The notes beneath the pieces were generated by a model, which was given only the letters and a program-made list of their open reading frames with translations, did not search any database and was not told where the DNA came from. Both the position numbers and the translations under genes were made by a program. Of a DNA stretch of 64,000 nucleotides, positions 32,377 through 64,000 are shown one piece after another. This DNA comes from Patescibacteria group bacterium (GTDB taxonomy: Bacteria > Patescibacteriota > Microgenomatia > UBA10105 > UBA927), in NCBI GenBank assembly GCA_035510735.1, contig DATKGN010000008.1:12466-76465 (forward strand), read 5' to 3'. Within the stretch, counting starts at the first letter, position 1; every line of letters begins with the position of its first letter.

Positions 32377-33093
32377 ATGGAATCAAAAACATACGGGGAA
32401 ATGTATCAATTAGAGCAAACGTACTTCTGGTTTGTGGGCAAACAGGCATTTATAAGGAACGTGCTCTCAACGTTGCCGCAAAAACATCGGGAGATCCTTG
32501 ATGTGGGCTGCGGAACAGGAGGAACAACAAAGTGTTTAATGGAATTCGGTCGGGTTACTGCGCTTGAAAAAAATCCGGATGCCGCACGATTTGCCCGGTC
32601 GCGGGGAATAAAGGTTGTAGAGGGCAACGCCAATCACCTGCCGTTTCCATCGGAATCGTTTGACCTCACGACATTTATTGACGTTCTGTACCACATAGGG
32701 ATATCAGAACCCAAAGCCCTGTCTGAAGCATTCAGGATCTTATCGCCCCACGGGTATCTTCTTATCACAGATTGTGCCGGCCCGGCATTATTTGGTCCGC
32801 ATGATATCACAATGGATGCAAAATACAGATATACAAAAAATCAACTCGAATCGATGGTCACTCAGGCTGGGTTTCAGATTGATGTGTCAAGATATATATA
32901 CACTTCAGTGTTCCCGCTATTTGCCTTCTCACGAATTCTGGCTAAAATATATCCCAGGCCGTCTACCATACCGCGTTTCCCAAAATTTCTTAATTCTATC
33001 TTTACGGGCATGCTCCGACTGGAAGGACTATTTTCCCCTAAAATTCCGGCACCATTCGGTTCTTCAATTCTCATACTCGCACACAAATCATAG
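32377..33093 (+). CDS. class I SAM-dependent methyltransferase
   Basis: ILDVGCGTGG motif I, Methyltransf_11-like layout. Confidence 0.7.
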   Translation: MESKTYGEMYQLEQTYFWFVGKQAFIRNVLSTLPQKHREILDVGCGTGGTTKCLMEFGRVTALEKNPDAARFARSRGIKVVEGNANHLPFPSESFDLTTFIDVLYHIGISEPKALSEAFRILSPHGYLLITDCAGPALFGPHDITMDAKYRYTKNQLESMVTQAGFQIDVSRYIYTSVFPLFAFSRILAKIYPRPSTIPRFPKFLNSIFTGMLRLEGLFSPKIPAPFGSSILILAHKS

Positions 33094-33246
33094 TGCAGTA
33101 CTATGATATGGTTAAAAGACGTAAACGGAATGATATATATCAATCTATTAATTAAATATAATTACAATATATTTATATAAATTACTATTCTAATCAATAA
33201 CACGCACGAAATTTTTCTTCCCTTTACCCATCAGTCATAATCTACT

Positions 33247-35235
33247 ATGATAAACACTGTGAAACACATCAACCCTTTATCGTCCGCTATTGCAAGATGG
33301 ATCATCGGTATATCATTAGCAGGACTTCCGCTTTTCTTTTTACCGGTAACTCAGGAGTTCTATGACACAAACAAATGGATGCTTCTGTCATGTCTCACGC
33401 TATTCATTATTATCTCCTGGCTATACCAAAGCCTCAGACGAAATACCGCGACATTCTCTCTTACGCCAATAACGACCGGACTTGGCGCCATCACAATCAC
33501 ATCGCTCTTCAGCCTTATTTTTGCCTCAACCAACAGAGTTGAGGCGCTGTTAAGCCCCTTCGGGCCTATCACATTTTTTAATCTGACCGTAATTTCGCTT
33601 TTGCTTCCCTCATTATTTGATCATAAACAGGTCACAAAGATCATATGGCCGCTGTTCGTAAGTACTACCATCCTTGCGCTTCTTTCCATCTACCAACTCT
33701 TCGGATTAGGCAAAGTCATGTTCCCGCAGGTTAGCTACCTTGCCGATCCCCTCTGGACGCCATCAGGCGCTTCAGTTGCGACAATCTCTCTTTTTGTACT
33801 GTTGTTACCCCTTCTTTTCCGGTTTATTAATGATGCCCATAAAGATAAACAGGAGACACCAATGTCACTTCTGGCGCTCATGTCTTTTATCTGCGTCGTG
33901 GGCGTTGGCGCCATAGTGTGGCAGCTCATACCGCGAATAAATGGTACGCTTCTTTCACTTCGTGACGGATGGGGCATTATGCTTGAAATCCTCAAAAACC
34001 CCAAACAAGCACTTGTGGGAGTCGGCGCAGAAAACTTTCTCGCAGCTTTCACCGCGGGGCGGTCTTCACTTATGAATTCTTCTCCGCTGTGGAGCCTCAG
34101 ATTTACCACAAATGCCAACATGCTCCTTCATATCGCAACAATTTACGGCCTTCTCGGGCTGGCAGCTATGATATTGTATATGAAAAACAGCATGACACAG
34201 GCCAAGAAAAGCGTATTCGGGGTTAGCATATTCGTGGGAATCGCTCTCTTTCTGTTGACTCCGCCGAATATAAGTGTTCTCGTTGTTATTGTGCTCCTCA
34301 CGATCCTTGCAGCGTTAGGAAAAAATCAAAAAACACTACACATCGCACACAAAAATATCTTTATCCGGGGCGCTATCTGTTTTGCAACCGTTATCCTGAT
34401 CGGCGCCGCTCTCATGGGAATTGTGCGATCATATAATGCCGAGCTTCTTTTCTATTCATCACTCCAATATGCCCAGGCGAATAATGGCAGCGCAACGTAT
34501 AATACTCAGATTCTCACGATCCGGACAAATCCGTATATAAGCCGGTATCACATTATATTTAGTCAAACAAATCTGGCGCTTGCGGCGTCACTGGCCAACT
34601 CTATTCGCGCCAATACAACGCCTCAAACAAAAGGATTAGCAGACACGACGACAAAGGACCGCCAGCTTGTTGCACAACTATTACAGCAGGCAATCAACGA
34701 AGCAAAGAAGGCAGTAGCGCTTGATCCCGTAAACATCTTATCATGGGAAAATCTCGCAAGAACCTATCAACAGCTCATCGGAGTCGCGCAGGGCGCAGAC
34801 AACTGGACGGTAGCGTCCTATAATCAGGCAATACAACTCGATCCCACCAATCCTGTTCTCTATGTCGACCTAGGAACTGTATTTATGTCAATCAATAATT
34901 ACACGACTGCGATAACGGAATTCCAACGTGCAATTGCACTTAAATCCGATTATGCAAATGCTTACTATAATCTGGCTAATGCCTACAAATCGAACAATGA
35001 TATTACCCAGGCAATAGCAACGATAAAACAAGTTCTTCCACTCATCGACAAGTCATCAGATGATTACAAAGTCATAAACCAAACGTTAAGTGATTATGGA
35101 AAAGAGGCTTCGGGGTCGTCGACAGTAAGCTCCGCGACATACAATACCCTGCCCTCAGCGACTATTCAGCCAAAGCCTATCACCCTGCCTACTGTAACGC
35201 TCCCCGCCAAGTCCACCAACCAAGTAACCAAGTAA
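33247..35235 (+). CDS. polytopic membrane protein with C-terminal TPR repeats (O-antigen ligase / O-oligosaccharyltransferase-like architecture)
   Basis: ~12 predicted TM segments in first ~420 aa; C-terminal TPR-like repeats (AWENLARTYQQL..., YNLANAYKSNND...). Confidence 0.45.
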   Translation: MINTVKHINPLSSAIARWIIGISLAGLPLFFLPVTQEFYDTNKWMLLSCLTLFIIISWLYQSLRRNTATFSLTPITTGLGAITITSLFSLIFASTNRVEALLSPFGPITFFNLTVISLLLPSLFDHKQVTKIIWPLFVSTTILALLSIYQLFGLGKVMFPQVSYLADPLWTPSGASVATISLFVLLLPLLFRFINDAHKDKQETPMSLLALMSFICVVGVGAIVWQLIPRINGTLLSLRDGWGIMLEILKNPKQALVGVGAENFLAAFTAGRSSLMNSSPLWSLRFTTNANMLLHIATIYGLLGLAAMILYMKNSMTQAKKSVFGVSIFVGIALFLLTPPNISVLVVIVLLTILAALGKNQKTLHIAHKNIFIRGAICFATVILIGAALMGIVRSYNAELLFYSSLQYAQANNGSATYNTQILTIRTNPYISRYHIIFSQTNLALAASLANSIRANTTPQTKGLADTTTKDRQLVAQLLQQAINEAKKAVALDPVNILSWENLARTYQQLIGVAQGADNWTVASYNQAIQLDPTNPVLYVDLGTVFMSINNYTTAITEFQRAIALKSDYANAYYNLANAYKSNNDITQAIATIKQVLPLIDKSSDDYKVINQTLSDYGKEASGSSTVSSATYNTLPSATIQPKPITLPTVTLPAKSTNQVTK

Positions 35236-35243
35236 CCGATAAT

Positions 35244-36935
35244 CTATTCTTTTTTCCGAAACACCCAGGCGAAAATCGCCCCCTGCCGCGTCACAGAATA
35301 GACCGGCACATAAGCCCCACCGAGTGTTGCTACAAACTCTTTTTCCGAAAAGTGAGAGGATTTATTCACGAGCACTATGCTATCGGCTTCACCGGAATTA
35401 TAGACATATTGATCGCCGGCTTTGAGATAATACCATGATAAATGTCCTGCAATCGGGACCCAAACGCGTGACGGCGGATAATTTGCATCCAGATACTGCA
35501 TTGCTTCGTGTACTGATAACGCCTCTATATCCCGATCATATTGTATATTGGGATTGACCGCAAAAGCGTTAAAATATCCCGATGAATACGGAACATAGTT
35601 GATATCAATAAATATGAGGTAACCAATAATCGTTAACAAAGTAACAAAGTAACAACATAACAACGTAACCCTGTAATCGGGTAACAAAGGGACAAAGAAT
35701 TTCTTGTGAAGAACATGTACAAAAACCTCAACGCCAAGTGCTGCAAGCAGCATGAGCGGCGGCAGAACTTCCATAAAATGCCGTATTCCGTCATAAAATG
35801 CGGCGCTTGGCATAATGGCGCGGGCCAAAGGAATAAGTATCCACAAAAACAGAAGAAGGGGCATCCGATTCCCAGGATTTTTCTGAAAAATTGCCGCTGC
35901 ACCCTGGAGGAGCCCTAACCCAATCGCAAAAAGGACGACAATCGGCGTTGCCAGAAAAAGATTTGCCCACGGATACCACCATAATGACCTCCCTACTCCC
36001 ACTTGATACAGTGTTCCGTTCCAAAAAATCTGATACCCTTGGCCCACGGTCGTAAAATACCGCACGACTTCGACAATGCGGTGTGTAGGATCAAACCAGA
36101 GATACGGCCACACGATAAACGCAACGGCAAATCCGATAACCATATAGATAATAATGGTTCCTGCGGCGGCAACGAACGGTTTAACGTGAACACTGTTCTT
36201 GGGATTATGCTTAACAAACTCAAGTAAACCGGTACACACGACCCAAATACCTGCAATAACCGGCACATATACCGCATTAAACTTGGTCGCAAGTGCCAAA
36301 CCCCATACAATGGCTCCAATAATCGTGCATGGGTTTGCCGTTTCGGGAGGACGTCTCTCCGACATTCCGGTCAACAAGCTTCGCAGTAATAAATACAGAC
36401 TTAGCGTAAAGAGTGCCACCTGGGCGGTATCTTTGAGGTCTGATAGCCCGTGCCCGAACATAGTGGGGTAAAGGAAAATAGCAAGTGCCGCAAACAGCCG
36501 GACCGCAATTGATAACCCCAAAAGTTCCCCGAATGCATAGACGGTAACGACAAGGATCGCAAAGAAAAAAACCGTGGCAATATGAAATGCGATAATGACA
36601 TTCGGCCCGGTCATCGGCATGCCGAATCTAGCGGCAATGACAGCAAACGCGGTGCCTATATAATTCGGAACCGGCGGATAACGTGCAAGGTCGTGCTCTT
36701 GTGTATAAATAATGTTACCGAATATTGATGCTCCCGCGTCCTTTTGTGTGAGAATCGAAGGCTTGAACCCTGATTGGAAAAAATTCCAATATTGGCCACC
36801 TGAAAATATATTATCCGGCTCATCCCACGCAGGACCGATTGAAGGCGCAAGCGTTATCCCGACAAAAATGACTAATAAGAATAAACATATGGGAATAAAT
36901 ATTTTCGTGAACGGGTGATGCACTTTACTATTCAT
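35244..36935 (-). CDS. GT-C family membrane glycosyltransferase (ArnT/PMT-like)
   Basis: Polytopic; first extracytoplasmic loop PAWDEPDNIF (DE motif) typical of GT-C enzymes using polyprenyl-phosphate sugars. Confidence 0.55.
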   Translation of the reverse strand: MNSKVHHPFTKIFIPICLFLLVIFVGITLAPSIGPAWDEPDNIFSGGQYWNFFQSGFKPSILTQKDAGASIFGNIIYTQEHDLARYPPVPNYIGTAFAVIAARFGMPMTGPNVIIAFHIATVFFFAILVVTVYAFGELLGLSIAVRLFAALAIFLYPTMFGHGLSDLKDTAQVALFTLSLYLLLRSLLTGMSERRPPETANPCTIIGAIVWGLALATKFNAVYVPVIAGIWVVCTGLLEFVKHNPKNSVHVKPFVAAAGTIIIYMVIGFAVAFIVWPYLWFDPTHRIVEVVRYFTTVGQGYQIFWNGTLYQVGVGRSLWWYPWANLFLATPIVVLFAIGLGLLQGAAAIFQKNPGNRMPLLLFLWILIPLARAIMPSAAFYDGIRHFMEVLPPLMLLAALGVEVFVHVLHKKFFVPLLPDYRVTLLCCYFVTLLTIIGYLIFIDINYVPYSSGYFNAFAVNPNIQYDRDIEALSVHEAMQYLDANYPPSRVWVPIAGHLSWYYLKAGDQYVYNSGEADSIVLVNKSSHFSEKEFVATLGGAYVPVYSVTRQGAIFAWVFRKKE

Positions 36936-36944: not shown

Positions 36945-37940
36945 TCATACCACGGAGGTGCGCTGTTTGAGGCTGTAATACAATGATCCCGAGAGGATAA
37001 TGCAATAAAGAATAAGTCCCATGGCGAGCGCTTTTCCCATGAATACCATCCCCTTCTCCCGGTAGACAAACCGGAAAAATTTTTGGAGTAGGAACGTGTG
37101 AATTGCCAATAATATCAAAGCGAAAAGCAAAAATGATGACTTCACAAACGGAAGCGGGACGAAAAAAAATAGTACGATTCCCAAAACAAATGACCCGATT
37201 GCCCCAACACCGGTTGCTGCGGCCATACTTTCCCAAACGGTTGTTGCAACCGGATCAAATTTCCGCCGTTCACGGTAGAGCTTTGTCCAATAAAAACTCC
37301 GCCAGAAATATTTCTTGGCAACGGGCCAAAATCCTTCAAATTCGTGGTGAACACGCACGTCTGGGGCAAAGATGATCGCATAGCGCTTAGCAATGCGATA
37401 CGTAAGCTCGACATCCTCCATCTGCCTAAACGCTTCGTTAAATCCGCCCAGTCGCAGAAACACTTCGCGGCGGATGGCGGCAATACGGGTACTAAATAAG
37501 TAATAATACCCGTCACGATCGCGCTCATTGGTCCAGTAACTCCAGTCCCGGAGGGCCTTAAATTGGGGAAAAAAATCATCGGTTTTCTGATGTTTATCCC
37601 ACACGCCGGTGATGGCGGTTAAATCGTGATCTTCTTTAAATTTTCCTGCAATTTTTGCGAGAGTGTCAGGATAGACGGTCACATCACTATCAAGAAATAC
37701 AAGCACTTCGCCGTGTGCCCGTTTCGCCGCGGCATTTCGTGCCGCCGCCGGCCCTTTATTGCGCGTCAACCGGACAATCTTGACGCCACGCCCGACGAAA
37801 TATTGTTCGTTAGACGCATCATCACCGACGATCACTTCAAACTGTTTATATGTTGATTTTGTAAGCGAAGCCAAAAGCCTCGTAAGCGAAACGCTCGCAT
37901 TGTAAGCAGGGATAATGATGGATAAATACGGCCTTCTCAT
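36945..37940 (-). CDS. family 2 glycosyltransferase
   Basis: LSIIIPAYNAS ... VGDDASNE ... DSDV (DxD) GT-A motifs. Confidence 0.7.
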   Translation of the reverse strand: MRRPYLSIIIPAYNASVSLTRLLASLTKSTYKQFEVIVGDDASNEQYFVGRGVKIVRLTRNKGPAAARNAAAKRAHGEVLVFLDSDVTVYPDTLAKIAGKFKEDHDLTAITGVWDKHQKTDDFFPQFKALRDWSYWTNERDRDGYYYLFSTRIAAIRREVFLRLGGFNEAFRQMEDVELTYRIAKRYAIIFAPDVRVHHEFEGFWPVAKKYFWRSFYWTKLYRERRKFDPVATTVWESMAAATGVGAIGSFVLGIVLFFFVPLPFVKSSFLLFALILLAIHTFLLQKFFRFVYREKGMVFMGKALAMGLILYCIILSGSLYYSLKQRTSVV

Positions 37941-38265: not shown

Positions 38266-39168
38266 CTACTTTCTTGCAAATGCAATCATGTCGTCCCAAG
38301 GGTTTATTGGATTTTTGATGTCAAAGTGATCGAATAATTTGCCGAGCGGTTTTAATATCCAAGCAGCCCAGGGGAAATAATCTGCGCCTCTCGTGAAGGC
38401 AAAAGACAAAGGAAACGGGCGCGGACTATCTCTATGGATTTCAATGTCATGAAACCCGGCTTTTTCCAAAAGCATCCGTATAGAATTGAAATCCAGTAGG
38501 ACCACATGCTCCGGGTGGGCAAACCCAAACCAACGCTTCCCCATCACCTTTCTCCAAAATCCGCCGTAATTCGGTGTCGCTAAAATAGCCATTCCGTTAT
38601 CTTTGAGTAACGAATGTATTCTTATCATCATTTTTAGCGGGTCCCGCTCGTGTTCAACGATCTGAAATGCCGTAATTACATCATACGATTGCTTCCTTAG
38701 TTGTTTGACCGTATAGACGGTCCCGTAAAACGCGGTAAGGTTATGTTTCCGACAGTAATTGACTGCATCGCGGGATAAATCGATCCCCTCACTCCTCCAC
38801 CCCACTTTTTTCGCCTCCTCCAAAAGCACTCCGGTGAGACATCCGATATCAAGAAGAGAAAATGGATGATGGACGATAGAAGATAGACTCCCGGTTTTAT
38901 CCACCTTCCATTTTCTATCTTCCATCTTCTCCTTTATATCCTCTATTTTCTGTTTGAAATACGCGTGGTGAACGCTTAGTTGCTCGATATACGGCGCAAA
39001 ATGATCAAAATCCTCATGGTACAAACCCGCAATTTGCGAGGCTGTCAGCATCGGAACAACCTGAACTAACCCACAGGTCTGACACTTTCCCATCTTCAAA
39101 TTCCCGTGATGGGTAAATAATATGGTAAATTCCCTCCCCTGACACACGACACATTTTTTCGTTTTCAT
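38266..39168 (-). CDS. SAM-dependent methyltransferase with N-terminal Cys4 zinc-ribbon
   Basis: CVVCQG...CQTCG ribbon; LLDIGCLTGVLL motif I. Confidence 0.65.
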   Translation of the reverse strand: MKTKKCVVCQGREFTILFTHHGNLKMGKCQTCGLVQVVPMLTASQIAGLYHEDFDHFAPYIEQLSVHHAYFKQKIEDIKEKMEDRKWKVDKTGSLSSIVHHPFSLLDIGCLTGVLLEEAKKVGWRSEGIDLSRDAVNYCRKHNLTAFYGTVYTVKQLRKQSYDVITAFQIVEHERDPLKMMIRIHSLLKDNGMAILATPNYGGFWRKVMGKRWFGFAHPEHVVLLDFNSIRMLLEKAGFHDIEIHRDSPRPFPLSFAFTRGADYFPWAAWILKPLGKLFDHFDIKNPINPWDDMIAFARK

Positions 39169-39178: not shown

Positions 39179-39934
39179 TTAATTGGTTACTTTGTTTATT
39201 GGTCTATTATACACTCCGCACAAATCATTGAGGCGGATCCGGAATAGATCTATGAACGATCCGATACCATCGAGCGGCCGGACTTTACTTCCAGACTTAT
39301 TTGACCACCCGACCGGCATCTCATAAACAGGAATCTTAAACTTTCGGGCCAGATAAATAAGCTCCGTATCAAAAACCCATCGGTTAATCCTGAGCCGTGG
39401 GAACAATATATTTGCCGTTTGACGCGTAAAACCTTTGAAACCGCAGGTAACGTCGGCAACCTGAGTAGTACACATCATATTTGAAAGTTCAGTAAATAAG
39501 CGTCCAGCCGACTCCCGTAACCACGGCTGATGGACAATAATGGCGGAATGGGAAAGTCTCCGGGATGCAATCACCAGTTTTTTCGTCTTCAACAACCGAA
39601 GCATCGTTTGGACCTCTGAAATGGGCACAGAAAGGTCGATATCGGAAAATACTATGTACTTCCCATGGGCGGCTACGACTCCTTCTCTTATCGCCCTCCC
39701 CTTCCCCATGTTGTGGGGCAATCGAAGCGAGATAACGCGCTTCAAATCTTTGGCCTTAAGGTGTGTCAGCAGGGGGTTATCGGATCCGTCATCGATAAGA
39801 ATAACTTCCCAGGTGTACGGCTGCCGCTTAAGGAACGACAATACCGACCGTAAACCGCTTTTTAACCGGACGGTTTCGTTATAGACAGGGATAACAACGG
39901 AGAGGTATACCTGATTAGGGCGCTTTATAGCCAT
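39179..39934 (-). CDS. family 2 glycosyltransferase (polyprenol-phosphate glycosyltransferase / DPM1-like)
   Basis: LSVVIPVYNE ... ILIDDGSDN ... SDIDLS GT-A motifs. Confidence 0.7.
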   Translation of the reverse strand: MAIKRPNQVYLSVVIPVYNETVRLKSGLRSVLSFLKRQPYTWEVILIDDGSDNPLLTHLKAKDLKRVISLRLPHNMGKGRAIREGVVAAHGKYIVFSDIDLSVPISEVQTMLRLLKTKKLVIASRRLSHSAIIVHQPWLRESAGRLFTELSNMMCTTQVADVTCGFKGFTRQTANILFPRLRINRWVFDTELIYLARKFKIPVYEMPVGWSNKSGSKVRPLDGIGSFIDLFRIRLNDLCGVYNRPINKVTN

Positions 39935-51149: not shown

Positions 51150-51810
51150 ATATTCCTTTCCATTTCATAAATACATCATACCGTTGTATTGACCTTTTAT
51201 ACCCCATCGGCGCCGTAATCCATTCTCCCCCATCTCGTGTTGTTCGATGGATAAGTCGTATGCGCTTTGTCTCAACAAATCCTAATTTATTATATAAACG
51301 CAATGCCCGCTCATTATCCGATGTCGTCTGGAGCGTGTATCCGTTGAGCCCAAACGTACTCATTCCCCACTGCATCATCTGCCGGATTGCCGCCGTCACA
51401 AGCCCCGGATACCCCTTGCGCCCACGGACAATATTGTCAATCTCACATGTTTTCTTTTCAAAATCAAACCGGTATAACCCAACATGACCTATATATGTAT
51501 CATGAACACGTATCATAAACAAGAGCCGGTCCTGTGTATTTATAACGTTATTTTTTAACCACCCCTTTGTCCGTTTGCGGGTCACCGGAAATTGCGTTGG
51601 AAACCACGTTTCATGTTTTTTCCTCCAGCGCGAAAGAAGGGCAACGATGTGATCATCAGTGATTGAATCGCGGGTAAGGAGTATAAGATCATAGTTCGTC
51701 CGGCGGATTATTCCCCGAATCGATACGGAGCCAAACGATTTGTTTTTCAATCGTGCGATGATTGCGCGTATCTTTTGTCCTGGTGGCGAAGAATATAAAG
51801 CGTCCTTCAT
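51136..51810 (-). CDS. GNAT family N-acetyltransferase
   Basis: IGHVGLY ... RGRKGYPGLVTAAIRQMMQW ... YNKLGFVE acetyl-CoA binding pattern. Confidence 0.6.
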   Translation of the reverse strand: MKDALYSSPPGQKIRAIIARLKNKSFGSVSIRGIIRRTNYDLILLTRDSITDDHIVALLSRWRKKHETWFPTQFPVTRKRTKGWLKNNVINTQDRLLFMIRVHDTYIGHVGLYRFDFEKKTCEIDNIVRGRKGYPGLVTAAIRQMMQWGMSTFGLNGYTLQTTSDNERALRLYNKLGFVETKRIRLIHRTTRDGGEWITAPMGYKRSIQRYDVFMKWKGIYEKA

Positions 51811-53594: not shown

Positions 53595-53611
53595 GTATGA
53601 ATTACACACCT

Positions 53612-55794: not shown

Positions 55795-56760
55795 TTACCT
55801 TATTTTCTTTATGTTCACGGTTGTTCTCACAATATAGCGCGGCCGCCGTTTAACTTCCAAAAATATTTTCGCCAAATATTCAGCAATAACACTCAACGAT
55901 AATAGCTGCACACCCCCTAAAAATAAAATGAGTATAACAACGGTGGGTATCCCCCTGGGGGAATTATGAAACAGGATAATAGTAACAAGATCAAAAACCA
56001 TAAGAAGAAAAGTAAAAATCATAACAAAAAATGCGATAGTTGATATCCACTCCAGTGGTTTGAACGAAAAATTAACAAGTATTGTTTTTGCCCACCAGAA
56101 TCCCGAAAGGACGCTTTCATTTGTTTGACCGTGAGAACGCGCGTCGCGCACATACGGAACACCGATTTGTTTGAACCCTACGTATGCACGAAGACATCTG
56201 AGATAATAATCATATTCATCAATCGCCAATAATTCATCTACGACCCGCCGATCAAGAAGCGAAAAATCACCGGCATCAAGTGGAATACTAATATATGCCA
56301 ATTTGTTGAGGACATAATAAAACCCTTTATACAGCATGTTCCATATGATTCCGTAGCCTTTACGGGAAGTCCGTACGCCATACACCACCGAATACCCCTG
56401 TTTCCACCGCTCAACAAATTTTGATAAGAGTTCCGGGGGATCCTGAATATCTCCATGAAGAAGAAACGCCATATCACCCGTTGAATATTCCAGTCCCGCA
56501 AGGAAGCTTGGCTGCGGCGAGCCAAAATTGCGGCTCATAACAATGAGCTTGACGCGTCGATCCTTCTTTGTGAGACGAAGGTAAATTTTTTCTGATCTGT
56601 CCGTTGACGCATTGTCTACATAGATCAATTCAAAGTCGTAGCGTGGAATTTTTTTAAAAACGGCAACAATCCTGCGATACATCTCTTCAATATTTTCTTC
56701 CTCGTTATAACACGTAACGATGATGGATATACGTTTCTTTTTCATGATCCTTAATGTCAT
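55795..56760 (-). CDS. family 2 glycosyltransferase (polyprenol-phosphate glycosyltransferase, ArnC/GtrB-like) with C-terminal TM helices
   Basis: ISIIVTCYNEEENI ... YVDNASTD ... two C-terminal TM helices. Confidence 0.7.
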   Translation of the reverse strand: MTLRIMKKKRISIIVTCYNEEENIEEMYRRIVAVFKKIPRYDFELIYVDNASTDRSEKIYLRLTKKDRRVKLIVMSRNFGSPQPSFLAGLEYSTGDMAFLLHGDIQDPPELLSKFVERWKQGYSVVYGVRTSRKGYGIIWNMLYKGFYYVLNKLAYISIPLDAGDFSLLDRRVVDELLAIDEYDYYLRCLRAYVGFKQIGVPYVRDARSHGQTNESVLSGFWWAKTILVNFSFKPLEWISTIAFFVMIFTFLLMVFDLVTIILFHNSPRGIPTVVILILFLGGVQLLSLSVIAEYLAKIFLEVKRRPRYIVRTTVNIKKIR

Positions 56761-56781: not shown

Positions 56782-57771
56782 CTATTCTTTATGTTTTATG
56801 GATTCCCGATTAGGTCGGAATGACAAAAACATACTGCTTTTTTTATACCATTTATATGTCTCCTTTAATCCTTTTTCGAGTGAATACGCTGGTTTCCATC
56901 CAAGCCCAGCGATTTTACTCCAGTTCAAATGCTGATATGGTATCTCATTTTTCTGATTATTATCAATCTGGTGCGGAACGGATATACGAAGTATCTTCTG
57001 CGCCCTCTTTATAAGATCAAGGACAGAAATATTTGTATCACTCGCAACATTAAACACCTCTCCCTTAATCTCATCTACATGATCTTCTAAAAATACATAT
57101 GCCGAAACGACATCGCCGACATATACATAATCCCTCATAAATGTGCCGTCGCTTCTCAGATGAAGTGTTTCGTGAGTTAGCGCGGCATTCATAATCCCGG
57201 GTATAATTCGCGACATATTAAGATCCCCGCCACCATAAATATTACCAAACCGAACGGTAACGACGGGCGCTCCATACGTTTTCACATAGGCTTTCGTCAC
57301 CATGTCTCCGGCGGCTTTACTTGCTTCATAGGGATGATCCCCCAGTAAGGGACTATCTTCCGTATACGTTTCGCTGCTTTTCCCGTATGCTTTATCGGAT
57401 GAAGTAATGATAATCCTGCGTACGGTGCCGCTATTCAACGCTGCATCGAGTATATGCGTTGTCCCTAAGACATTAGTCGTAATTGTCTCCACAGGATTGT
57501 AGTAAGCCGTATCAACAATCGGTTGAGCAGCGAGGTGAAAGATATCTTCTATTTCGTATTTGGTAACAATATCGGCTATTCTTCTTCGATCTGTAACGTC
57601 TCCATTCGCGAGAATTACTTTTTTTTCTAGTCCCCGGGTAACAAAATACGACTGCGGGTCAAGACTCCTGTACGGCACAACGACACGCGCTCCCCTTTTG
57701 ACGAGTTCTTCAACTAAATGACTTCCGACAAACCCCGTCCCGCCGGTGACTAAAATTCTACGTCCGTTCAT
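56782..57771 (-). CDS. rfbG: CDP-glucose 4,6-dehydratase (RfbG/DdhB-like extended SDR)
   Basis: ILVTGGTGFVGSHL, FHLAAQPIV (AAQP), TSSDKAYG, HPYEASKAAGDM, FGNIYGGGD — matches CDP-glucose 4,6-dehydratase rather than dTDP-type. Confidence 0.7.
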   Translation of the reverse strand: MNGRRILVTGGTGFVGSHLVEELVKRGARVVVPYRSLDPQSYFVTRGLEKKVILANGDVTDRRRIADIVTKYEIEDIFHLAAQPIVDTAYYNPVETITTNVLGTTHILDAALNSGTVRRIIITSSDKAYGKSSETYTEDSPLLGDHPYEASKAAGDMVTKAYVKTYGAPVVTVRFGNIYGGGDLNMSRIIPGIMNAALTHETLHLRSDGTFMRDYVYVGDVVSAYVFLEDHVDEIKGEVFNVASDTNISVLDLIKRAQKILRISVPHQIDNNQKNEIPYQHLNWSKIAGLGWKPAYSLEKGLKETYKWYKKSSMFLSFRPNRESIKHKE

Positions 57772-57975
57772 AATAGAGTCTCCCGATTGGTATATAAACA
57801 TGCACAACCCTTCTGTTTTCGTGTGGGATAAAAGAGTTTCCGATTATTAAATGAGCACGTGCAAACCCGAGCCAATTGCCTCGAATTATCAACCAAAGGG
57901 ATACATTTGAGGAGAAAATATACCACAAAGAAAACTCCGGCAAGTGCGAATTAAATAATCGGGAAACTCCCCGTG

Positions 57976-58758
57976 TTAGTCCTTCCATACTTTCCACTGT
58001 GGGCCGGTTTTCCAAAAGGTGTTGAGATTCGTAACGTCTGCATATGTATCCATCGCATGCCAAAATCCATTATGGACGTAAAGCGATAACTCATGATTTT
58101 TCACTAAGCGGTGTAATGCGGCATGATCAAATTCTCCGGGTCGAATGTAGTCAAAAAATTTCTTTTTGAAAATCATATACCCGCCGTTCACCCATTCCCG
58201 GAGGGACGGCTTCTCCACAAACTGTGTAACTCCGTTCTTTTCGTCAATGCGGACCTGTCCGAACCGGGACCGCGGGTGAACTCCGGTGATAGTTCCAACT
58301 AAGTTATGTTTACGGTGAAAAGCCACAAGTTTTTTAATATCAACATCTCCCAAACCATCACCATACGTCACCATAAAATCCTCATCTTCTTTCGGAATAT
58401 AATCGCGGACGCGGAGTATCCGTTCTCCCGTTAATGTTTCCTGACCCGTATCAACGAATGTAATGGTAAAATCATCTATCCCCTCTCCAGCTGACGCGCG
58501 GTGTATATGTGTCCTGCCGCTTTTCGTGTGAAGCGTAAAGTCGTGGAGGAAATATTTTTGATTCAGAAAATAATCCTTGATGTAATCTCCTTTATACCCA
58601 AGCGCGATAATAAATTCGTTAAAACCGAAGTGACTGTATATTTTCATGATATGCCAGAGAATCGGTTTATTGCCGATGAGGACCATGGGCTTTGGTTTAA
58701 ATTCCGTTTCTTCTTTTAACCGGTATCCGATTCCACCGCAGAGTATCACTGTTTTCAT
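57976..58758 (-). CDS. rfbF: glucose-1-phosphate cytidylyltransferase (RfbF/DdhA)
   Basis: MKTVILCGGIGYRLKEETEFKPKPMVLIGNKPILWHIMKIYSHFGFNEFIIALGYKG nearly colinear with RfbF N-terminus. Confidence 0.85.
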   Translation of the reverse strand: MKTVILCGGIGYRLKEETEFKPKPMVLIGNKPILWHIMKIYSHFGFNEFIIALGYKGDYIKDYFLNQKYFLHDFTLHTKSGRTHIHRASAGEGIDDFTITFVDTGQETLTGERILRVRDYIPKEDEDFMVTYGDGLGDVDIKKLVAFHRKHNLVGTITGVHPRSRFGQVRIDEKNGVTQFVEKPSLREWVNGGYMIFKKKFFDYIRPGEFDHAALHRLVKNHELSLYVHNGFWHAMDTYADVTNLNTFWKTGPQWKVWKD

Positions 58759-58799: not shown

Positions 58800-60485
58800 C
58801 TAACTATTATTTCTTTGTATCAAATTATGCTTTCGTAAATAGGTAACAATTTTTTGTACACTCATCATCCGCGATTGATGTGCCGTATTGATTGTCATCT
58901 CGGGATGTTTTGGTTTTTCATACGGATCATCAACACCGGTAACTCCCTTAATCTCACCCATCTCCTGGCGTTTATACAATCCTTTCACATCCCGTTTCCG
59001 ACAAACTGATAAGGGTGTGGCCACATACACTTCAACATATGTCCCATACGTTTTGATAAGCTGGCGATTAACTAATCTTGGTTCTTCATACGGAGCAACA
59101 ACAGCGCAAATGGCAATACCTCCGTGTTTTGTTATTTCAGAAGCAACAAATCCGATCCGTTTAATATTTGTGTCTCTGTCTTCTTTGGAAAATCCTAATC
59201 CTTTTGAAAGATTCCGTCTTACAACATCACCATCAAGGATGGTTACTTTTTTATCCTGGATTTCGATGAGTTGACTATAAAGCATTTGTGCTATCGTTGA
59301 TTTTCCTGCACTGGGCAATCCGGTAAAAAATACCGTCAGACCTCTTTTTGCATCTCGCACAGCCCCCGCCCTAAGTTCCCGAACTACCTCGGGAAATGAT
59401 ATCCACTCAGGTACTTGTGACTTCGAGCGGATAAGTTTCCTGAGTTTAGTTCCCGATATTTTTTTCACCTGCACGTTTTTGGAAACGTCCTGAATCTGCA
59501 TATATATTTTTTTATCCGTCCGGTACACCATTTCTTTAAACGGAATTATTATCATATCAAGTTCCGGTGCAAAATGACCGACTAACTCTTCCGCGTCGTA
59601 ATGACCGTAAAAAGGTCGCCCTGATTTGTCTTCTCCAGGTCCTGCATGATCCCGTCCGACGATAAAATGGGTGCATCCGTAGTTCTTCCGAATTATCGCG
59701 TGCCAGAGCGCTTCCTTCGGTCCCGCCATCCGCATCGCAAGAGGCAATAAACTCAACGTTGCGAACTGTTGCATATGACGCGTATAAACCGCAATATATG
59801 AACGGACGCGGGTCACGTAATCAATATCGCCGTCTTTTGTGACACCCACCGACGGATGAAAGAGTATATGGGCGTGATACTCATGGGCTGCCTGTTGCAT
59901 CATCGCAAAATGGACTTTATGGATCGGGTTTCTGGTTTGAAAACCGATAACTGATTCCCATGTATGTTTACGAAAATATGACCGCAGCTCCTGCGGGGTA
60001 TGCCGGTACTGTGCAAAATCGAACCGGTCTACGCGTGATATTCCTTTCAAAGTTCCGCCTAAATAATAGTCACCGGTTTCTTTGAGAAGATACTGTACAC
60101 CATAATGATCAGTATTCGTTGTACCGTAAACCAACTTTGCTTCCTGCTTTTTATCGGGGTGATATATGGAATTGATAGTAAATTTTGCAACCGGTTTACC
60201 GTACTGGTCACATAGAACAACGCTCATCCCACCCCGGTACGGACTAATATCGGGAACATCCAGCACCACAGGGATCGGCCAAAGTGTCCCATTCTTTAAC
60301 CGCATATTCTTGATAACGCTCTCGTATTCTTCTTCTTCGAGAAAACCGGTAAGTGGTAAAAAGGAGCTATCGAGAATTAATTCAAGGTCGCATAATTGCC
60401 GTGCATTAAGGTACACACGCGGAAGAGAAAATATTTCGCGTACGAGTTCCTTCTGTTCATTCCCATTCGTAAATAAATTTTTCAC
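58800..60485 (-). CDS. bifunctional sulfate adenylyltransferase / adenylylsulfate kinase (PAPS synthesis)
   Basis: ATP-sulfurylase GFQTRNPIHKVH and GRDHAGPG motifs; C-terminal APS-kinase P-loop FFTGLPSAGKST and DGD. Confidence 0.8.
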   Translation of the reverse strand: MKNLFTNGNEQKELVREIFSLPRVYLNARQLCDLELILDSSFLPLTGFLEEEEYESVIKNMRLKNGTLWPIPVVLDVPDISPYRGGMSVVLCDQYGKPVAKFTINSIYHPDKKQEAKLVYGTTNTDHYGVQYLLKETGDYYLGGTLKGISRVDRFDFAQYRHTPQELRSYFRKHTWESVIGFQTRNPIHKVHFAMMQQAAHEYHAHILFHPSVGVTKDGDIDYVTRVRSYIAVYTRHMQQFATLSLLPLAMRMAGPKEALWHAIIRKNYGCTHFIVGRDHAGPGEDKSGRPFYGHYDAEELVGHFAPELDMIIIPFKEMVYRTDKKIYMQIQDVSKNVQVKKISGTKLRKLIRSKSQVPEWISFPEVVRELRAGAVRDAKRGLTVFFTGLPSAGKSTIAQMLYSQLIEIQDKKVTILDGDVVRRNLSKGLGFSKEDRDTNIKRIGFVASEITKHGGIAICAVVAPYEEPRLVNRQLIKTYGTYVEVYVATPLSVCRKRDVKGLYKRQEMGEIKGVTGVDDPYEKPKHPEMTINTAHQSRMMSVQKIVTYLRKHNLIQRNNS

Positions 60486-60503
60486 CGTGGCGATTATAAC
60501 AAG

Positions 60504-61010
60504 TTAGAGCAAGGAATTGATGTGCTTTTCTGGAAATATCTGACGAAAAAGAATCAGAAGATATTCCCGTACCGAATAAAATGAAATGTGATTTTTTTCA
60601 TATGCCCCCCTTTTGTACATGATTTCGCCAGTTGATAACAAACGGTTGATGCGGCATTTCACGATACTCGCCCGATTGTATCGTCGGGTCAATTGTTGAC
60701 GGGTTAATCCGCTCCTCCCTGCCGTTACAATTTCGGCTAATATACGAAGTGTCAATGACGCCTCAACGGCGCTATAGACGCCAAAGACAAACAGCGCCAC
60801 CATAAGAAGATATAGCGTCATCCAATAAATAAGTTCATTCAGTCCAAAATAACGCGATAGATACCACCCCTCTCCGATTCCTATGATCACACACGCTCTA
60901 ACTACCCAATGGAGCGCTTCATCCTGTGCGGTCATGTGGAAAAGGACAATAAGTGTGAGAATAAATAAAATAAACGATGTTAATGCCATTATTACAATTT
61001 GATAATCCAT
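60504..61010 (-). CDS. small membrane protein (paralog pair, unknown function)
   Basis: 3-4 TM helices plus basic ~60-aa C-terminal domain; same architecture as adjacent ORF. Confidence 0.4.
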   Translation of the reverse strand: MDYQIVIMALTSFILFILTLIVLFHMTAQDEALHWVVRACVIIGIGEGWYLSRYFGLNELIYWMTLYLLMVALFVFGVYSAVEASLTLRILAEIVTAGRSGLTRQQLTRRYNRASIVKCRINRLLSTGEIMYKRGAYEKNHISFYSVREYLLILFRQIFPEKHINSLL

Positions 61011-61012
61011 AA

Positions 61013-61498
61013 TTACTCGGTCATCGACCGATGAAAAACCCGCTGATACAGACTAATACAATAAATACTCGCTCTCCCCTTCGTGGTCGTTATGTACTTC
61101 GCCCGACGTACTTCAATTAACCCGCTCCTTTTTAAGTCGTCTACCCGTTTCCAGAATAAACCGGAGTCTGTAAATAAGTGCATCAGATCCGCCTCTGTTT
61201 GACGTTTTTTCTTTTTAAAAGATGCAAGTATCATCGACGCGGGCGTTTCTCCACCTAAGTAAGGACCAAGATAAAAAAGAGAGGCCGTCAGAGCCAAAAG
61301 CATATACAAAACCAGTGAAGTAAAAACATAGTGTGATGGCCTAAGCAGCACATACGCACACATGACGCATCCTCCGGGAATATATACCGTCAAGCTAATG
61401 AGTGGATCGTATCTGATACGCTGCATCCACCTATGAACGATACTGTGGGCGGAAAAGGTCAGAATAAAAATTCCGACTGTTATGACGAATGTGTTCAT
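61013..61498 (-). CDS. small membrane protein (paralog pair, unknown function)
   Basis: 3-4 TM helices plus basic C-terminal domain. Confidence 0.4.
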   Translation of the reverse strand: MNTFVITVGIFILTFSAHSIVHRWMQRIRYDPLISLTVYIPGGCVMCAYVLLRPSHYVFTSLVLYMLLALTASLFYLGPYLGGETPASMILASFKKKKRQTEADLMHLFTDSGLFWKRVDDLKRSGLIEVRRAKYITTTKGRASIYCISLYQRVFHRSMTE

Positions 61499-61598
61499 AC
61501 AGGCTAGCGTGAGTAAATCACGGAGGGCCGCAATTTGTCAAATCATATGGATAAAAATTCCGATCACATAAGCTGTTTTTGTAGGATATAATGGATGC

Positions 61599-63233
61599 AT
61601 GTTCTTAACGAAAAAAACCGGATTAATCATCGTAATAGTGCTTCTTATTCTGATGTTCGCTTTTATCATCAAAGAAATTTTTCCGTATGCAAATGTCCTT
61701 TGGGACGAAGCAGAATTCTTACTTCAAACGTATTGGACCGTGAAACCGATCCAACTTCATGATTGGGTCGGAGTATTGACGCAACTCCATAATCAAATTA
61801 GTTATCCTCCGCTTCAATATGCGATATTAGCACCCATTCTGGATGTAATCGGATTCAGTATTGAAAAAGCGCGGATAGTGTCTATGATATTCCCTTTTAT
61901 CACCGGGGTACTCATATATGTTCTCGGAATTCAGGTCGGCCAATCTGTGTTTTCTACAAAAAAGCAATTGCCACAGCTCGTTGGACTTCTTGCTGTCGTT
62001 TTTTTTGTCACATCACCGGTCTTACTATATCTCCATACAATAATTCTCAAGGAACCAATGTCGACAACGTGGACCATCTTAGCAATTCTTGTTTATTTTA
62101 AGGCCCGCACGTCGAAGAAACTCCAATGGTTCTTATTAACTGGAGTTTTGGTCGCAATTTCGTTTCTGACGAAATATCCTTACGGCATCATGAATTTGGC
62201 TTTTTTTGGTATAGAAGCGTGTATTAGTCTAGTAACCGCAAAAAATGGGAAAGAACGTGTACATCTCATTACTTCACATTTACTCATTCTTCTTCCGGTC
62301 GTAATCGGAGCGCTCTTATGGGTGGCAACGTCTCCTGAACGGTTCAATCAATTTTTGTACATTATAGAAAATAATGAAATTCCGAACGAAATGGCAGGAT
62401 GGGATTTGCCGACGTATCTGTTTTATTATCCCAAAGGAATCGTTTACATGTATGGCATAACCATTCCGGTCGGCATCGTTCTTTTGGCATCTTTTATATT
62501 TTCAACGCAATATATAAAAAAACTGAAACCCCGATTATTGTGGTTATCATTTGTTACCTACGTTATTTTTTTAACACCTCATATGATCAACTTACAGGAG
62601 CGCTATATTGCTCCCGTGTCACCCGGTTTATTCATCCTTGTGTCAATCGTCCTTATTGATGTTGTAAGACGATCATTCAAATCTCCTCTTTGGACACGTA
62701 TCGTCGTTTGTACTCTGGCTATCGGATTGGGAATCCATATACTCATAAGTCTTAAGAATCTGCCAATTCGCGTCTATGACGTCGGCACAAAAACAATTTT
62801 CGCCATCGCATTCAACCAACCGGATGTTAATCCCACATGGTTTGATTACAACACGGCGGCTTGGGGGAAGCTCTCTCCCGCGCTCGCAACGGAAAATCCA
62901 AAAGATATTCTTACGTGGGTCTTCAATCGCATCGATACAACGAAACCCGTCTACGTAAAAGGCAGATTTACGGAACTCTCTCCCCCGTATTTCCTTTTAT
63001 CCGTATTAACAGAGAAAGATCATTCAAAACCAAAAAATCTTCCCTATAAAGAATATTATGTTACCCTGACAGTTCTTCCGACCTCGCGATACTATACCCA
63101 TGAATATCGCCTGATCAATGAGTGGGTCCAGTGGGAGGTTCAGACAACAGCGGCAGATCCGAGTTTGACTCTGGTGGACGCGAAGACATTTAAACAACTT
63201 GGTATCAGCGTTTCTATTTACGGCAGACTGTAA
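61599..63233 (+). CDS. GT-C family membrane glycosyltransferase (ArnT/PMT-like)
   Basis: Polytopic 544 aa; NVLWDEAEF DE-loop after first TM. Confidence 0.55.
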   Translation: MFLTKKTGLIIVIVLLILMFAFIIKEIFPYANVLWDEAEFLLQTYWTVKPIQLHDWVGVLTQLHNQISYPPLQYAILAPILDVIGFSIEKARIVSMIFPFITGVLIYVLGIQVGQSVFSTKKQLPQLVGLLAVVFFVTSPVLLYLHTIILKEPMSTTWTILAILVYFKARTSKKLQWFLLTGVLVAISFLTKYPYGIMNLAFFGIEACISLVTAKNGKERVHLITSHLLILLPVVIGALLWVATSPERFNQFLYIIENNEIPNEMAGWDLPTYLFYYPKGIVYMYGITIPVGIVLLASFIFSTQYIKKLKPRLLWLSFVTYVIFLTPHMINLQERYIAPVSPGLFILVSIVLIDVVRRSFKSPLWTRIVVCTLAIGLGIHILISLKNLPIRVYDVGTKTIFAIAFNQPDVNPTWFDYNTAAWGKLSPALATENPKDILTWVFNRIDTTKPVYVKGRFTELSPPYFLLSVLTEKDHSKPKNLPYKEYYVTLTVLPTSRYYTHEYRLINEWVQWEVQTTAADPSLTLVDAKTFKQLGISVSIYGRL

Positions 63234-63240
63234 GGATGGA

Positions 63241-64000
63241 TTAAATTTTTTCTTCCACAATATACGAGGGACGGCCTTTCGTTTCTTCAACGATTACCTG
63301 AACGTATTTACCGACAAAACTGAGCGCCAACAACTGTACGCCTCCGAAAAAAAGTGTAATTCCTACAATGATAATGGGAATGCTGGCATTATGAGTATGG
63401 TCATAAAAGAAATAGTATATGAGATACAGGGAAAAAATGATCACTGCGAGAAATACGAGGAGAATTCCGAGATAAACAATAAAATCAAGCGGCATATAGG
63501 AAAATCCGAAAAAACTGCGTTCGGCATGGTGAAAGTATTCCAATAAATTGTATGAACTCTTACCCCGGGCCCGGCGCTTACGCGCGTAGGTGATATATGC
63601 CCGTTTAAATCCAACCCAAGCCCGTAACCCCCTATAGAAACGGTACCGTTCGGGGAGCGCACGCATCGCATCAAGCGGCCGCTTCCCCACCAAACTGAAA
63701 CTTCCGGCGTTAACTGGCACGTCGATATTTGAGATTGCTTTAAATACCCGATAAAACGATTTTCGAAACATCGTCATGACGATGTTGTCTTCTATTTTCG
63801 TACGGATCCCGACGACAACATCATATCCTTCTTCCCATTTTTTAATAAATTTTGGGATGATATCGACCGGGTCCTGCATATCACTCTCGTAGTAGATAAA
63901 TGCATCTCCCCGGGCGAAATCCATCGTTGCTTCCCCTGAAGATTCCGGACCGAAATTTCTTGACAAAAATATTCCCCGGACTCGTTTATCTTTCTTAACC
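63241..64000 (-). CDS. family 2 glycosyltransferase (polyprenol-phosphate glycosyltransferase-like), 5' end beyond window
   Basis: Frame stays open to window edge (…RGIFLSRNFGPESSGEAT… = LSRNFG motif), DxD-like YYESDMQDP, two C-terminal TM helices. Confidence 0.65.
   Translation of the reverse strand, partial: VKKDKRVRGIFLSRNFGPESSGEATMDFARGDAFIYYESDMQDPVDIIPKFIKKWEEGYDVVVGIRTKIEDNIVMTMFRKSFYRVFKAISNIDVPVNAGSFSLVGKRPLDAMRALPERYRFYRGLRAWVGFKRAYITYARKRRARGKSSYNLLEYFHHAERSFFGFSYMPLDFIVYLGILLVFLAVIIFSLYLIYYFFYDHTHNASIPIIIVGITLFFGGVQLLALSFVGKYVQVIVEETKGRPSYIVEEKI

Follow-up and report, generated by a model that had tools for sequence, protein, structure and literature searches.

Erwiniose, a C4-branched 3,6-dideoxy sugar of Pectobacterium atrosepticum, has a published gene set that comprises ErwE, ErwI, ErwJ and the reductase ErwF, together with keto-sugar genes (PMC9306805). 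ErwE accepted 4-hydroxy-2-oxopentanoate and rejected pyruvate (PMC9306805), and JanthE, a YerE-like carboligase that accepts ketones, takes 4-hydroxy-2-oxovalerate (PMC12188165). In the papers cited here, the acyl-branched sugars that have been characterized belong to proteobacterial and mycobacterial glycolipids. Here we report on a stretch of 64,000 nucleotides (the window) from a Patescibacteria group bacterium of the Candidate Phyla Radiation (CPR) (GenBank assembly GCA_035510735.1, contig DATKGN010000008.1, positions 12,466 to 76,465). The host has a tiny genome, is of the groundwater type and is probably one of the Gottesmanbacteria. The window holds part of an island of at least 40 kb, whose products are predicted to build a rare C-branched dideoxy sugar, to load it onto a lipid carrier and to attach it outside the cell. 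The individual parts are of known kinds. What is undescribed is their combination, the host in which they are found, and the link, across phyla, between RfbH/YerE genes and GtrB-like genes.

Bacteria of the CPR (Patescibacteria) live attached to other microbes, and their surface chemistry is almost unknown. In Saccharibacteria, also members of the CPR, pilin glycosylation has been predicted bioinformatically only (PMC12206443). The locus offers a concrete model, in which a rare branched dideoxy sugar passes through a lipid carrier step and in which candidate transferases and acceptors can be named. The listing of open reading frames (ORFs) and the Pfam/NCBIfam scans revealed a dense run of glycan-related genes from position 32377 to the end of the window. 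Genes are named below by their first coordinate in the window, where no other name is at hand.

Genes for a Predicted Acyl-Branched Dideoxy Sugar

The gene at 46248..47558 (-) encodes RfbH/DdhC (E1), the cytidine diphosphate (CDP)-4-keto-6-deoxyglucose 3-dehydrase (NF011936, 632.8 bits for a cutoff of 423). The protein scores 507 bits to the Yersinia E1 (PDB 3bcx) against 168 to ColD, and it contains the sequence C189-X57-C247-X-C249-X7-C257 as well as His216 in place of lysine. A histidine replacing the pyridoxal phosphate lysine, combined with the iron-sulfur motif C-X57-C-X-C-X7-C, is what we take to be the hallmark of E1 enzymes. A glucose-1-phosphate cytidylyltransferase (RfbF-like) was found at 57976..58758 (-), matching TIGR02623 over its full length (280.7 bits, cutoff 300.25; next-best family 84 bits). 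Beside it, at 56782..57807 (-), lies a nucleoside diphosphate-hexose 4,6-dehydratase, a short-chain dehydrogenase/reductase (SDR) which probably acts on CDP-glucose (TIGR02622, the CDP model, 197 bits for a cutoff of 278, against 183 bits for the thymidine diphosphate (dTDP) model).

Between the RfbH and the dehydratase genes sits a trio of genes: a YerE-like carboligase dependent on thiamine diphosphate (ThDP) (51807..53609, -), a 4-hydroxy-2-oxovalerate aldolase of the DmpG/BphI type (53716..54762, -; TIGR03217, 381 bits, cutoff 286), and an acetylating acetaldehyde dehydrogenase of the DmpF/BphJ type (54876..55763, -; TIGR03215, 360 bits, cutoff 282). The ThDP enzyme presents three thiamine pyrophosphate (TPP) domains and a GDG motif at residue 455. 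Its best match among solved structures is JanthE (8rph, 394 bits), against 239 bits to acetohydroxyacid synthase (AHAS) and 211 bits to PpYerE (5ahk). The ORF opens on a GTG located 5 codons upstream of the start chosen by gene callers (600 vs 595 amino acids). These genes form a same-strand run, in which the aldolase and dehydrogenase genes, about 110 bp apart, stand just upstream of the ThDP gene, while a GNAT gene and an aminotransferase gene follow with overlaps on its other side (51807/51810 and 51136/51149).

ErwE, ErwI, ErwJ and the keto-sugar genes all have counterparts in the window. For ErwF, the sole candidate is an RmlD-like SDR reductase at 43577..44557 (-), a putative YerF/ErwF-type ketoreductase or C4 reductase (PF04321, 136 bits; 124 bits to the rmlD model, below its cutoff of 224). 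Homologues of this protein at 26-29% identity are encoded directly downstream of the ThDP gene in two other loci (L046, L024), and in a related 1.22-Mb genome (L084) it is paired with the 41985 orthologue described below. A tblastn search of plasmids made for the comparison with ErwE returned ordinary acetolactate synthases only. Given the trio of YerE-like carboligase, aldolase and dehydrogenase, CDP-4-keto-3,6-dideoxyglucose is most likely an intermediate in this organism, and not the precursor of a plain dideoxyhexose.

A plain CDP-3,6-dideoxyhexose of the abequose, paratose, tyvelose or ascarylose type could also be formed by way of the RmlD-like SDR, the trio then serving an unrelated metabolism. 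RfbF, the dehydratase, RfbH and an RmlD-like reductase are indeed present. Also, among the 80 RfbH loci from many phyla that we compared, each seen over the stretch fetched around RfbH, 43 show no ThDP gene. However, the ThDP enzyme of the window is YerE-like and not AHAS-like, its gene belongs to the same-strand run as the sugar genes, and the aldolase/dehydrogenase genes adjoin the ThDP gene in 5/5 of the other loci. Moreover, the trio is the published signature of erwiniose (PMC9306805), and nothing around the DmpFG pair in the window points to catabolism. A plain dideoxyhexose as the end product is thus, in our opinion, quite improbable.

The genes that overlap on the side of the carboligase encode a DegT-family sugar aminotransferase (49920..51149, -; PF01041, 336 bits) and a GNAT N-acetyltransferase overlapping both its neighbors (51136..51810, -; PF13302, 58 bits). 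In two other loci (L001, L047), whose fetched stretch showed no ThDP gene, a homologous aminotransferase and GNAT adjoin RfbH, which suggests a parallel 4-amino branch drawing on the same keto-sugar. It could also be that both enzymes act on the side-chain carbonyl of one single elaborate sugar, giving an acetamido-substituted C4 branch instead of, or besides, the reduced branch. The overlapping ThDP, GNAT and aminotransferase genes suggest translational coupling, and acyl branches are known to be further modified by transaminases (PMC9306805). Nevertheless, the arrangement in L001 and L047 indicates that the pair can act on an unbranched keto-sugar, and we hold the single elaborate sugar to be unlikely.

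The island also encodes a bifunctional ATP sulfurylase/adenosine phosphosulfate (APS) kinase, i.e., a synthase of phosphoadenosine phosphosulfate (PAPS), at 58800..60485 (-) (NF004040, 747 bits, cutoff 669). In one of the compared loci (L003, 2889-6251), an RfbH/ThDP operon includes a PAPS synthase with 57% identity to that of the window, along with a CysQ-like phosphatase and a Sulfotransfer_3 protein. This arrangement hints at sulfated branched sugars.

A preliminary description of the window, made from the sequence alone, had recognized an rfbF-rfbG-rfbH set and had read it as a CDP- rather than a dTDP-sugar pathway leading to a 3,6-dideoxyhexose. All three genes are present, RfbH above its model cutoff and the two others below. 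The CDP assignment is not refuted, RfbH being an E1 orthologue and RfbF being cytidylyltransferase-like. The pathway itself was incomplete as described, since the trio of the erwiniose-type acyl-branched route had been overlooked, as had the PAPS synthase and the membrane protein with a TPR domain at 33247 described below. The RmlD-like reductase, the DegT aminotransferase, the GNAT and two S-adenosylmethionine (SAM) methyltransferases that it listed were all recovered by family scans.

Membrane Glycosyltransferases

Four genes of the window encode glycosyltransferases of family 2 (GT2). The one at 55795..56760 (-) is a polyprenyl-phosphate glycosyltransferase of the GtrB/ArnC type, with a GT2 domain and 2 C-terminal transmembrane (TM) helices. 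Its residues 10-312 align with residues 27-327 of Synechocystis GtrB (5ekp, E = 1e-57), i.e., over the full length, and ArnC is matched at E = 1e-29. A second GtrB-type GT2, at 63241..64000 (-), is 36% identical to 55795 and also has 2 TM helices. Its N-terminus is cut by the end of the window (311 amino acids in full). The GT2 at 39179..39934 (-) has no TM helix; its catalytic domain is nearest to ArnC, GtrB and dolichyl-phosphate mannose synthase (PF00535, 81 bits; ArnC E = 7e-11), and its gene overlaps the GT-C gene upstream (39915). The last one, at 36945..37940 (-), has C-terminal TM helices and is generic rather than GtrB-type (PF00535, 96.9 bits; PDB matches to generic GT2). The GT2 and GT-C genes occur in adjacent or overlapping pairs (36945/35244, 39179/39915, 63241/61599).

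Five island genes were shown to encode proteins of the GT-C fold or superfamily. The tests were Pfam and NCBIfam scans up to E<=10, hydropathy, family hidden Markov models (HMMs), hhalign, and an AlphaFold2 (AF2) model searched against the PDB with Foldseek. The hydropathy scan gave 8-14 segments in 35244, 39915, 41985, 44646 and 61599, which are thus polytopic. A direct match to a curated GT-C profile was obtained for only one of the five, the PMT_2 protein at 61599..63233 (+) (PF13231, 37.9 bits, cutoff 26.1). This protein presents a WDE in its first loop, and hhalign related it to family A1, that of 35244, at 90.8% and to family A4 at 93.5%. The four others have no Pfam or NCBIfam match, even at E<=10.

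Homologue, profile and fold evidence is available for 35244..36935 (-), a divergent PMT_2-like GT-C with W37-D38-E39 in its first loop. Among its homologues at 40-55% identity, about one in three has PF13231; D38 is invariant in the family, and W37 and E39 are conserved in at least 90% of it. For the AF2 model (pLDDT 92.5), the top 22 Foldseek matches in the PDB were GT-C enzymes without exception, including ArnT, STT3, ALG12, AglB and PglB (probability 1.00), with AftD, Pmt and DPY19 also among these 22. Searched against PDB sequences, the family profile gave a marginal Pmt4 match and nothing more. The protein at 39915..41678 (-) is a paralogue of 35244 (blastp E = 1e-35; 502 bits to the A1 HMM), and it too presents a WDE in the first loop.

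The gene at 41985..43610 (-), whose start is placed about 21 codons later by gene callers (520 amino acids), encodes a divergent GT-C of the PMT_2 superfamily. Residues D59, D61 and E62, after the first TM helix, are invariant across 34 sequences. A full-library profile search gave 2450 relatives, and PF13231 was matched by 23 of 33 distant full-length family members. Compared with the 35244 family by hhalign, an alignment of close homologues reached 25%, vs 96.7% when distant members were added. The protein at 44646..46271 (+) is a GT-C fold enzyme of a small family outside Pfam (about 23 proteins detected, all devoid of Pfam domains), and this family aligns with the 35244 family at 97.6% in hhalign. 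Its acidic loop motif is weaker, D56 alone being nearly invariant. The 44646 and 41985 family profiles gave nothing useful against PDB sequences. For 39915, 41985 and 61599, the GT-C assignment rests on profiles, and for 35244 on the AF2 model too.

Four or five GT-C enzymes with DE-containing loops had been proposed in the preliminary description. All five are GT-C, although the DE-type motif is weak in 44646, where D56 alone stands out. That description had made these assignments depend on HMM annotation, which does fail for 4 of the 5 genes, a failure overturned by the deeper methods. With four out of five GT-C enzymes invisible to Pfam and NCBIfam, standard annotation probably under-counts the glycosylation capacity of the CPR. 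Four of the five GT2 genes announced there were found again (36945, 39179, 55795, 63241), and the window has no fifth. As far as sequence allows, the lipid-linked sugar relay that it suggested is supported by the GtrB/ArnC likeness of 55795 and by the pairing of GT2 with GT-C genes.

Position 64000 is the limit of the window and not that of the island, as the same contig in SRR8676594 runs on for at least 8.6 kb. The window sequence was also found again in several metagenome assemblies. Past 64000, on a contig identical to the window (L090, 6487-15101), we found the complete GT2 of 63241 (311 amino acids), an epimerase, two more GT2 genes, two GFO/IDH/MocA oxidoreductases, a 457-amino-acid protein with 9 TM helices and without family assignment, and a second GT-C of the 44646 type (E = 1e-46 to the 44646 family).

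So many membrane proteins could also belong to a conventional envelope polysaccharide locus (O-antigen, capsule or secondary wall polymer), the polytopic proteins being polymerases, ligases and flippases. A candidate for such a role is the polytopic membrane protein encoded at 33247..35235 (+), with about 10 TM helices by hydropathy and a C-terminal TPR (TPR_11, 68 bits). Its gene adjoins pilin genes, and its membrane part showed no link to GT-C or to another family in Pfam, PDB and hhalign comparisons. This protein could be O-antigen-ligase-like and transfer glycans en bloc, for example to pilins. Besides, the generic GT2 36945 could extend a lipid-linked oligosaccharide, and the 457-amino-acid, 9-TM protein without family assignment lies just past the window. 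Against this, Pfam scans of window ORFs brought up no family of initiating phosphoglycosyltransferases, Wzx, Wzy (Wzy_C) or ABC exporters, which argues against the classical polysaccharide route. In addition, fold or profile evidence places five of the polytopic proteins among the GT-C enzymes, and GtrB-type synthases are present. We therefore give little credence to a conventional polysaccharide locus.

Distribution of RfbH Loci and Conservation of the Island

The 80 RfbH loci span Acidobacteriota, Chloroflexota, Verrucomicrobiota, Clostridia, CPR and Methanoregula. A cytidylyltransferase and a dehydratase stand beside RfbH in 59-63 of them, and a ThDP enzyme was found in 37. A GtrB-like GT2 occurs in 36 of the 80 loci, in 15 cases at most 300 bp from a pathway gene, and in 25 of the 37 loci with a ThDP enzyme. 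The genes for the same branching chemistry as in the window are found in loci of CPR, Acidobacteriota, Chloroflexota, Verrucomicrobiota and Methanoregula.

The aldolase/dehydrogenase pair was found in five other loci (L002, L004, L005, L054, L057), from CPR, Bryobacteraceae and Methanoregula, and in all five it is adjacent to the ThDP gene. Four of these five loci have the ThDP enzymes with the highest identities to that of the window (46-60%). The locus of a Shapirobacteria genome (L005) packs RfbF, RfbG, the ThDP enzyme, the aldolase, the dehydrogenase, a GT2, RfbH and a GT-C into about 13 kb. Two Methanoregula metagenome-assembled genomes (L023, L057) carry RfbF, RfbG, a GtrB-like GT2, the ThDP enzyme and RfbH, L057 having the aldolase/dehydrogenase pair as well. 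Three loci labelled "uncultured Gammaproteobacteria" (L003, L004, L007) encode RfbH, ThDP enzyme and aldolase 59-70% identical to those of the window, which suggests either horizontal transfer or mis-binned CPR contigs.

The closest relatives of RfbH in reference genomes belong to Gottesman-, Roizman- and Shapirobacteria (59-64% identity), and the named homologues of the island membrane proteins are from Gottesmanbacteria. Gottesmanbacteria RBG_13_45_10 keeps the order 41985-type gene, GT2, methyltransferases, GT2, 35244-type gene. The 1.22-Mb relative (L084) has kept eleven island orthologues. Where the window has its erwiniose-type genes, this relative encodes, at L084 16553-21566, another ThDP enzyme (37% identity) together with a split transketolase and an aminotransferase of class I/II. 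According to a 2025 review, the split transketolases in sugar clusters of one bioinformatic survey were all from Streptomycetes (PMC12247030). As the core order and the L084 orthologues are kept while the sugar genes differ, the GT-C/GT2/methyltransferase frame is conserved and syntenic in Gottesmanbacteria, and the sugar cassette is variable. Such a comparison of the island across related genomes had been called for in the preliminary description.

We also considered that the island might be a horizontally acquired region recognizable by its composition. This idea was dropped, the GC content being 0.42-0.47, like the rest of the window, except for a stretch at 0.377 located at 48-50 kb.

The syntenic core of Gottesmanbacteria, with sugar genes that differ between genomes, is also what would be seen if the GT-C, GT2 and methyltransferase genes were a housekeeping core and if the product of the inserted cassette were used by other enzymes, both sets being co-located without coupling. 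The small number of RfbH loci elsewhere with a GT-C nearby goes in the same direction. Nevertheless, coupled glycan loci are usually built in this way, with a variable cassette set within conserved transferase genes. Also, GtrB-like genes track RfbH/ThDP genes across phyla, and L005 holds pathway, GT2 and GT-C within 13 kb. Co-location without coupling consequently seems very doubtful to us.

Candidate Acceptors

Next to the island, at 21504..30422 (+), an ORF encodes a giant membrane-anchored protein of 2972 amino acids, which is a candidate acceptor (Collagen, 224 bits). Its N-terminal part matches a phage-integrase SAM-like domain (residues 32-123), and a TM helix close to residue 240 is followed by 231 G-X-T triplets and a long Thr/Ser/Asn-rich tail. 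The collagen-like triplets are GPT, GST and GTT. Similar G-P-T repeats are O-glycosylated in BclA of Bacillus. A cytoplasmic integrase-like domain is odd on a surface fiber, and the TTG start of this ORF may be too far upstream.

Three type IV pilins with N_methyl motifs, also candidate acceptors, are encoded at 30551..32327 (-). The third one, at 31629-32327 (-), contains a Pro/Thr-rich linker, PTGTPTPTPTNVPTPTPP, typical of O-glycosylated linkers. We infer that the G-X-T fiber and the pilins next door are the likeliest acceptors, a wall polymer being the alternative.

Proposed Glycosylation Route

We consider it probable, with moderate confidence, that the island serves extracytoplasmic glycosylation, branched dideoxy sugars being brought to surface targets by a lipid-linked relay of the Gtr/Arn type. 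The enzyme families and the conserved neighborhoods are observed, and it is from them that we infer the substrates, the order of the steps, the transfer from CDP-sugar to lipid, and the acceptors. RfbF would produce CDP-glucose, which the SDR dehydratase would convert into CDP-4-keto-6-deoxyglucose. RfbH (E1) would then remove the 3-hydroxyl to give CDP-4-keto-3,6-dideoxy-D-glucose, with electrons from a reductase presumably encoded elsewhere. Meanwhile, 4-hydroxy-2-oxopentanoate would arise from acetyl-CoA and pyruvate through the acetaldehyde dehydrogenase and the aldolase. The YerE-like ThDP enzyme would decarboxylate this compound and add the C4 unit at C-4 of the keto-sugar, and a reductase, for which the RmlD-like SDR is the candidate, would complete an erwiniose-like branched sugar. 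In parallel, the DegT aminotransferase and the GNAT probably turn the same keto-sugar into a 4-acetamido-3,4,6-trideoxyhexose, and the glycan may be further decorated by the methyltransferases and by PAPS-dependent sulfation.

From nucleotide donors, the GtrB/ArnC-type GT2 enzymes (55795, 63241 and perhaps 39179) would load monosaccharides onto polyprenyl phosphate. A flippase would then carry these lipid-linked sugars across the membrane, and the GT-C enzymes, at least five in number, would move them onto acceptors outside the membrane, most likely Thr/Ser-rich surface proteins.

Several points weigh against this sequence-based reading. RfbF and the dehydratase score below their equivalog cutoffs, and the ErwF-like assignment of the reductase is weak, as it comes from adjacency in two loci at 26-29% identity. 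On the membrane side, no flippase was identified in the window, nor any recognizable protein of the GtrA or ArnE/F type. We know of no GtrB- or ArnC-type enzyme that uses a CDP-sugar, and the adjacency of GT2 and pathway genes could reflect a shared glycan and not a shared substrate. In CPR relatives, the GT2 adjoining the pathway is of the 63241 type (52-56% identical) and not of the 55795 type, and either type may serve the branched sugar. A GT-C is detectable within 10 kb in only a few of the 80 loci. Concerning sulfation, the window shows no sulfotransferase, no relative of the L003 sulfotransferase, and no PAPS-binding motif. Finally, despite the iron-sulfur motif of RfbH, no E3 (ddhD) was found in the window by Pfam scans and a cysteine-motif scan, the only searches made for it, in line with the preliminary description, which had seen no evident partner there.

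The plant-type 2Fe-2S motif was found in no real ORF of the window, nor in those of the 80 RfbH loci, which were searched by motif only. Looking for a ddhD homologue elsewhere, as that description had recommended, thus returned none by motif in these 80 other loci, and E3 seems, in environmental genomes, to be ordinarily missing from the neighborhood. SpnQ, a related dehydrase, is served by general ferredoxin or flavodoxin reductases.

A broader reading can be drawn from the same data. RfbF, RfbG, RfbH, the YerE-like ThDP enzyme and the GtrB-like GT2 could form a widespread bacterial and archaeal module, in which CDP-activated, C-branched 3,6-dideoxy sugars would be transferred to polyprenyl phosphate by a GtrB that takes CDP-sugars. 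In the CPR, highly divergent GT-C enzymes, some from families outside Pfam, would then coat the G-X-T fiber and the type IV pili with a variable, possibly sulfated glycan. We propose this tentatively and regard it, on the whole, as rather unlikely. If true, the product of such a CDP-sugar-using GtrB would represent a previously undescribed class of lipid-linked donor.

Other Genes of the Island and Its Surroundings

The two class I SAM methyltransferases are encoded at 32377..33093 (+) (PF08241, 69 bits) and at 38266..39168 (-) (PF13489, 74 bits). Two small membrane proteins of 168 and 161 amino acids, with TM helices, are encoded at 60504..61498 (-), and their orthologues adjoin the 41985 orthologue in L084 (11724-12729). 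They gave no family match in Pfam/NCBIfam scans, and they could be flippase, regulator or chaperone candidates. In each, 2-3 TM helices at the N-terminus precede a C-terminal domain that is basic and has faint winged-helix matches.

Three orphan soluble proteins are encoded in the lowest-GC stretch of the island (0.377). The first one (47611..48444, +) has a HELGH motif, like that of zinc proteases, and the two others lie at 48441-49127 (-) and 49215-49895 (-). None of the three has a family match, and no homologues were found in the 80 loci.

Upstream of the island, the window contains housekeeping genes, ComEC/ComEA, the three type IV pilins and the 2972-amino-acid ORF. The ComEC-like gene (metallo-beta-lactamase and Competence domains) and the ComEA-like DNA-uptake gene adjoin LeuRS at 15162-17892 (-). 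A PIG-L/LmbE-family deacetylase is encoded far upstream of the island, at 2706-3443 (+).

Comparison with Known Systems

The erwiniose cluster (Steitz et al. 2022, PMC9306805) and the window share the CDP-4-keto-3,6-dideoxyglucose genes, a YerE-like carboligase, an adjacent BphI/DmpG aldolase and BphJ/DmpF dehydrogenase, and an NAD(P)H reductase candidate. This likeness is one of gene sets as published. The host is a CPR bacterium here, whereas erwiniose comes from a proteobacterium bearing lipopolysaccharide (LPS). The window also differs in lacking an E3, in having an aminotransferase, a GNAT and a PAPS synthase in addition, and in neighboring GtrB-type and GT-C genes instead of an O-antigen assembly set. 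The frequent presence of a GtrB-like gene beside branched-sugar genes suggests that these sugars are delivered otherwise than by classical O-antigen assembly.

In the yersiniose A pathway of Yersinia pseudotuberculosis O:VI (YerE/YerF), as predicted here, a ThDP enzyme adds an acyl anion equivalent to C-4 of a CDP-3,6-dideoxy-4-ketohexose. YerE uses pyruvate and forms a C2 branch, whereas the aldolase and dehydrogenase of the window point to a C4 donor. As for JanthE, its ThDP-binding motif is CDG, and that of the window enzyme is the canonical GDG.

The GtrA/GtrB/GtrC and ArnC/ArnT systems resemble the locus in that a two-TM GT2 synthase is paired with a polytopic GT-C acting outside the membrane. 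However, the locus holds at least 5-6 GT-C and several GT2 genes. Their donors are uridine diphosphate (UDP)-glucose or UDP-Ara4FN, whereas those proposed for the window are CDP-linked rare sugars. CPR bacteria are expected to make no LPS, and if this holds for the organism of the window, the acceptor cannot be lipid A or O-antigen, unlike in the Gtr and Arn systems.

Polyprenyl-phosphate-monosaccharide donors are also used with PMT_2-like GT-C enzymes by Ppm1/Pmt (GT39) in the protein O-mannosylation of actinobacteria, by systems of the CsbB/YfhO type on the wall polymers of Firmicutes and by TfpW on the pilins of Pseudomonas aeruginosa. In contrast to these, four of the five GT-C enzymes of the window are too divergent for Pfam. 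The targets of these three systems are Ser/Thr-rich secreted proteins, pilins and wall polymers, and the window has Thr-rich candidates adjacent to its own transferases.

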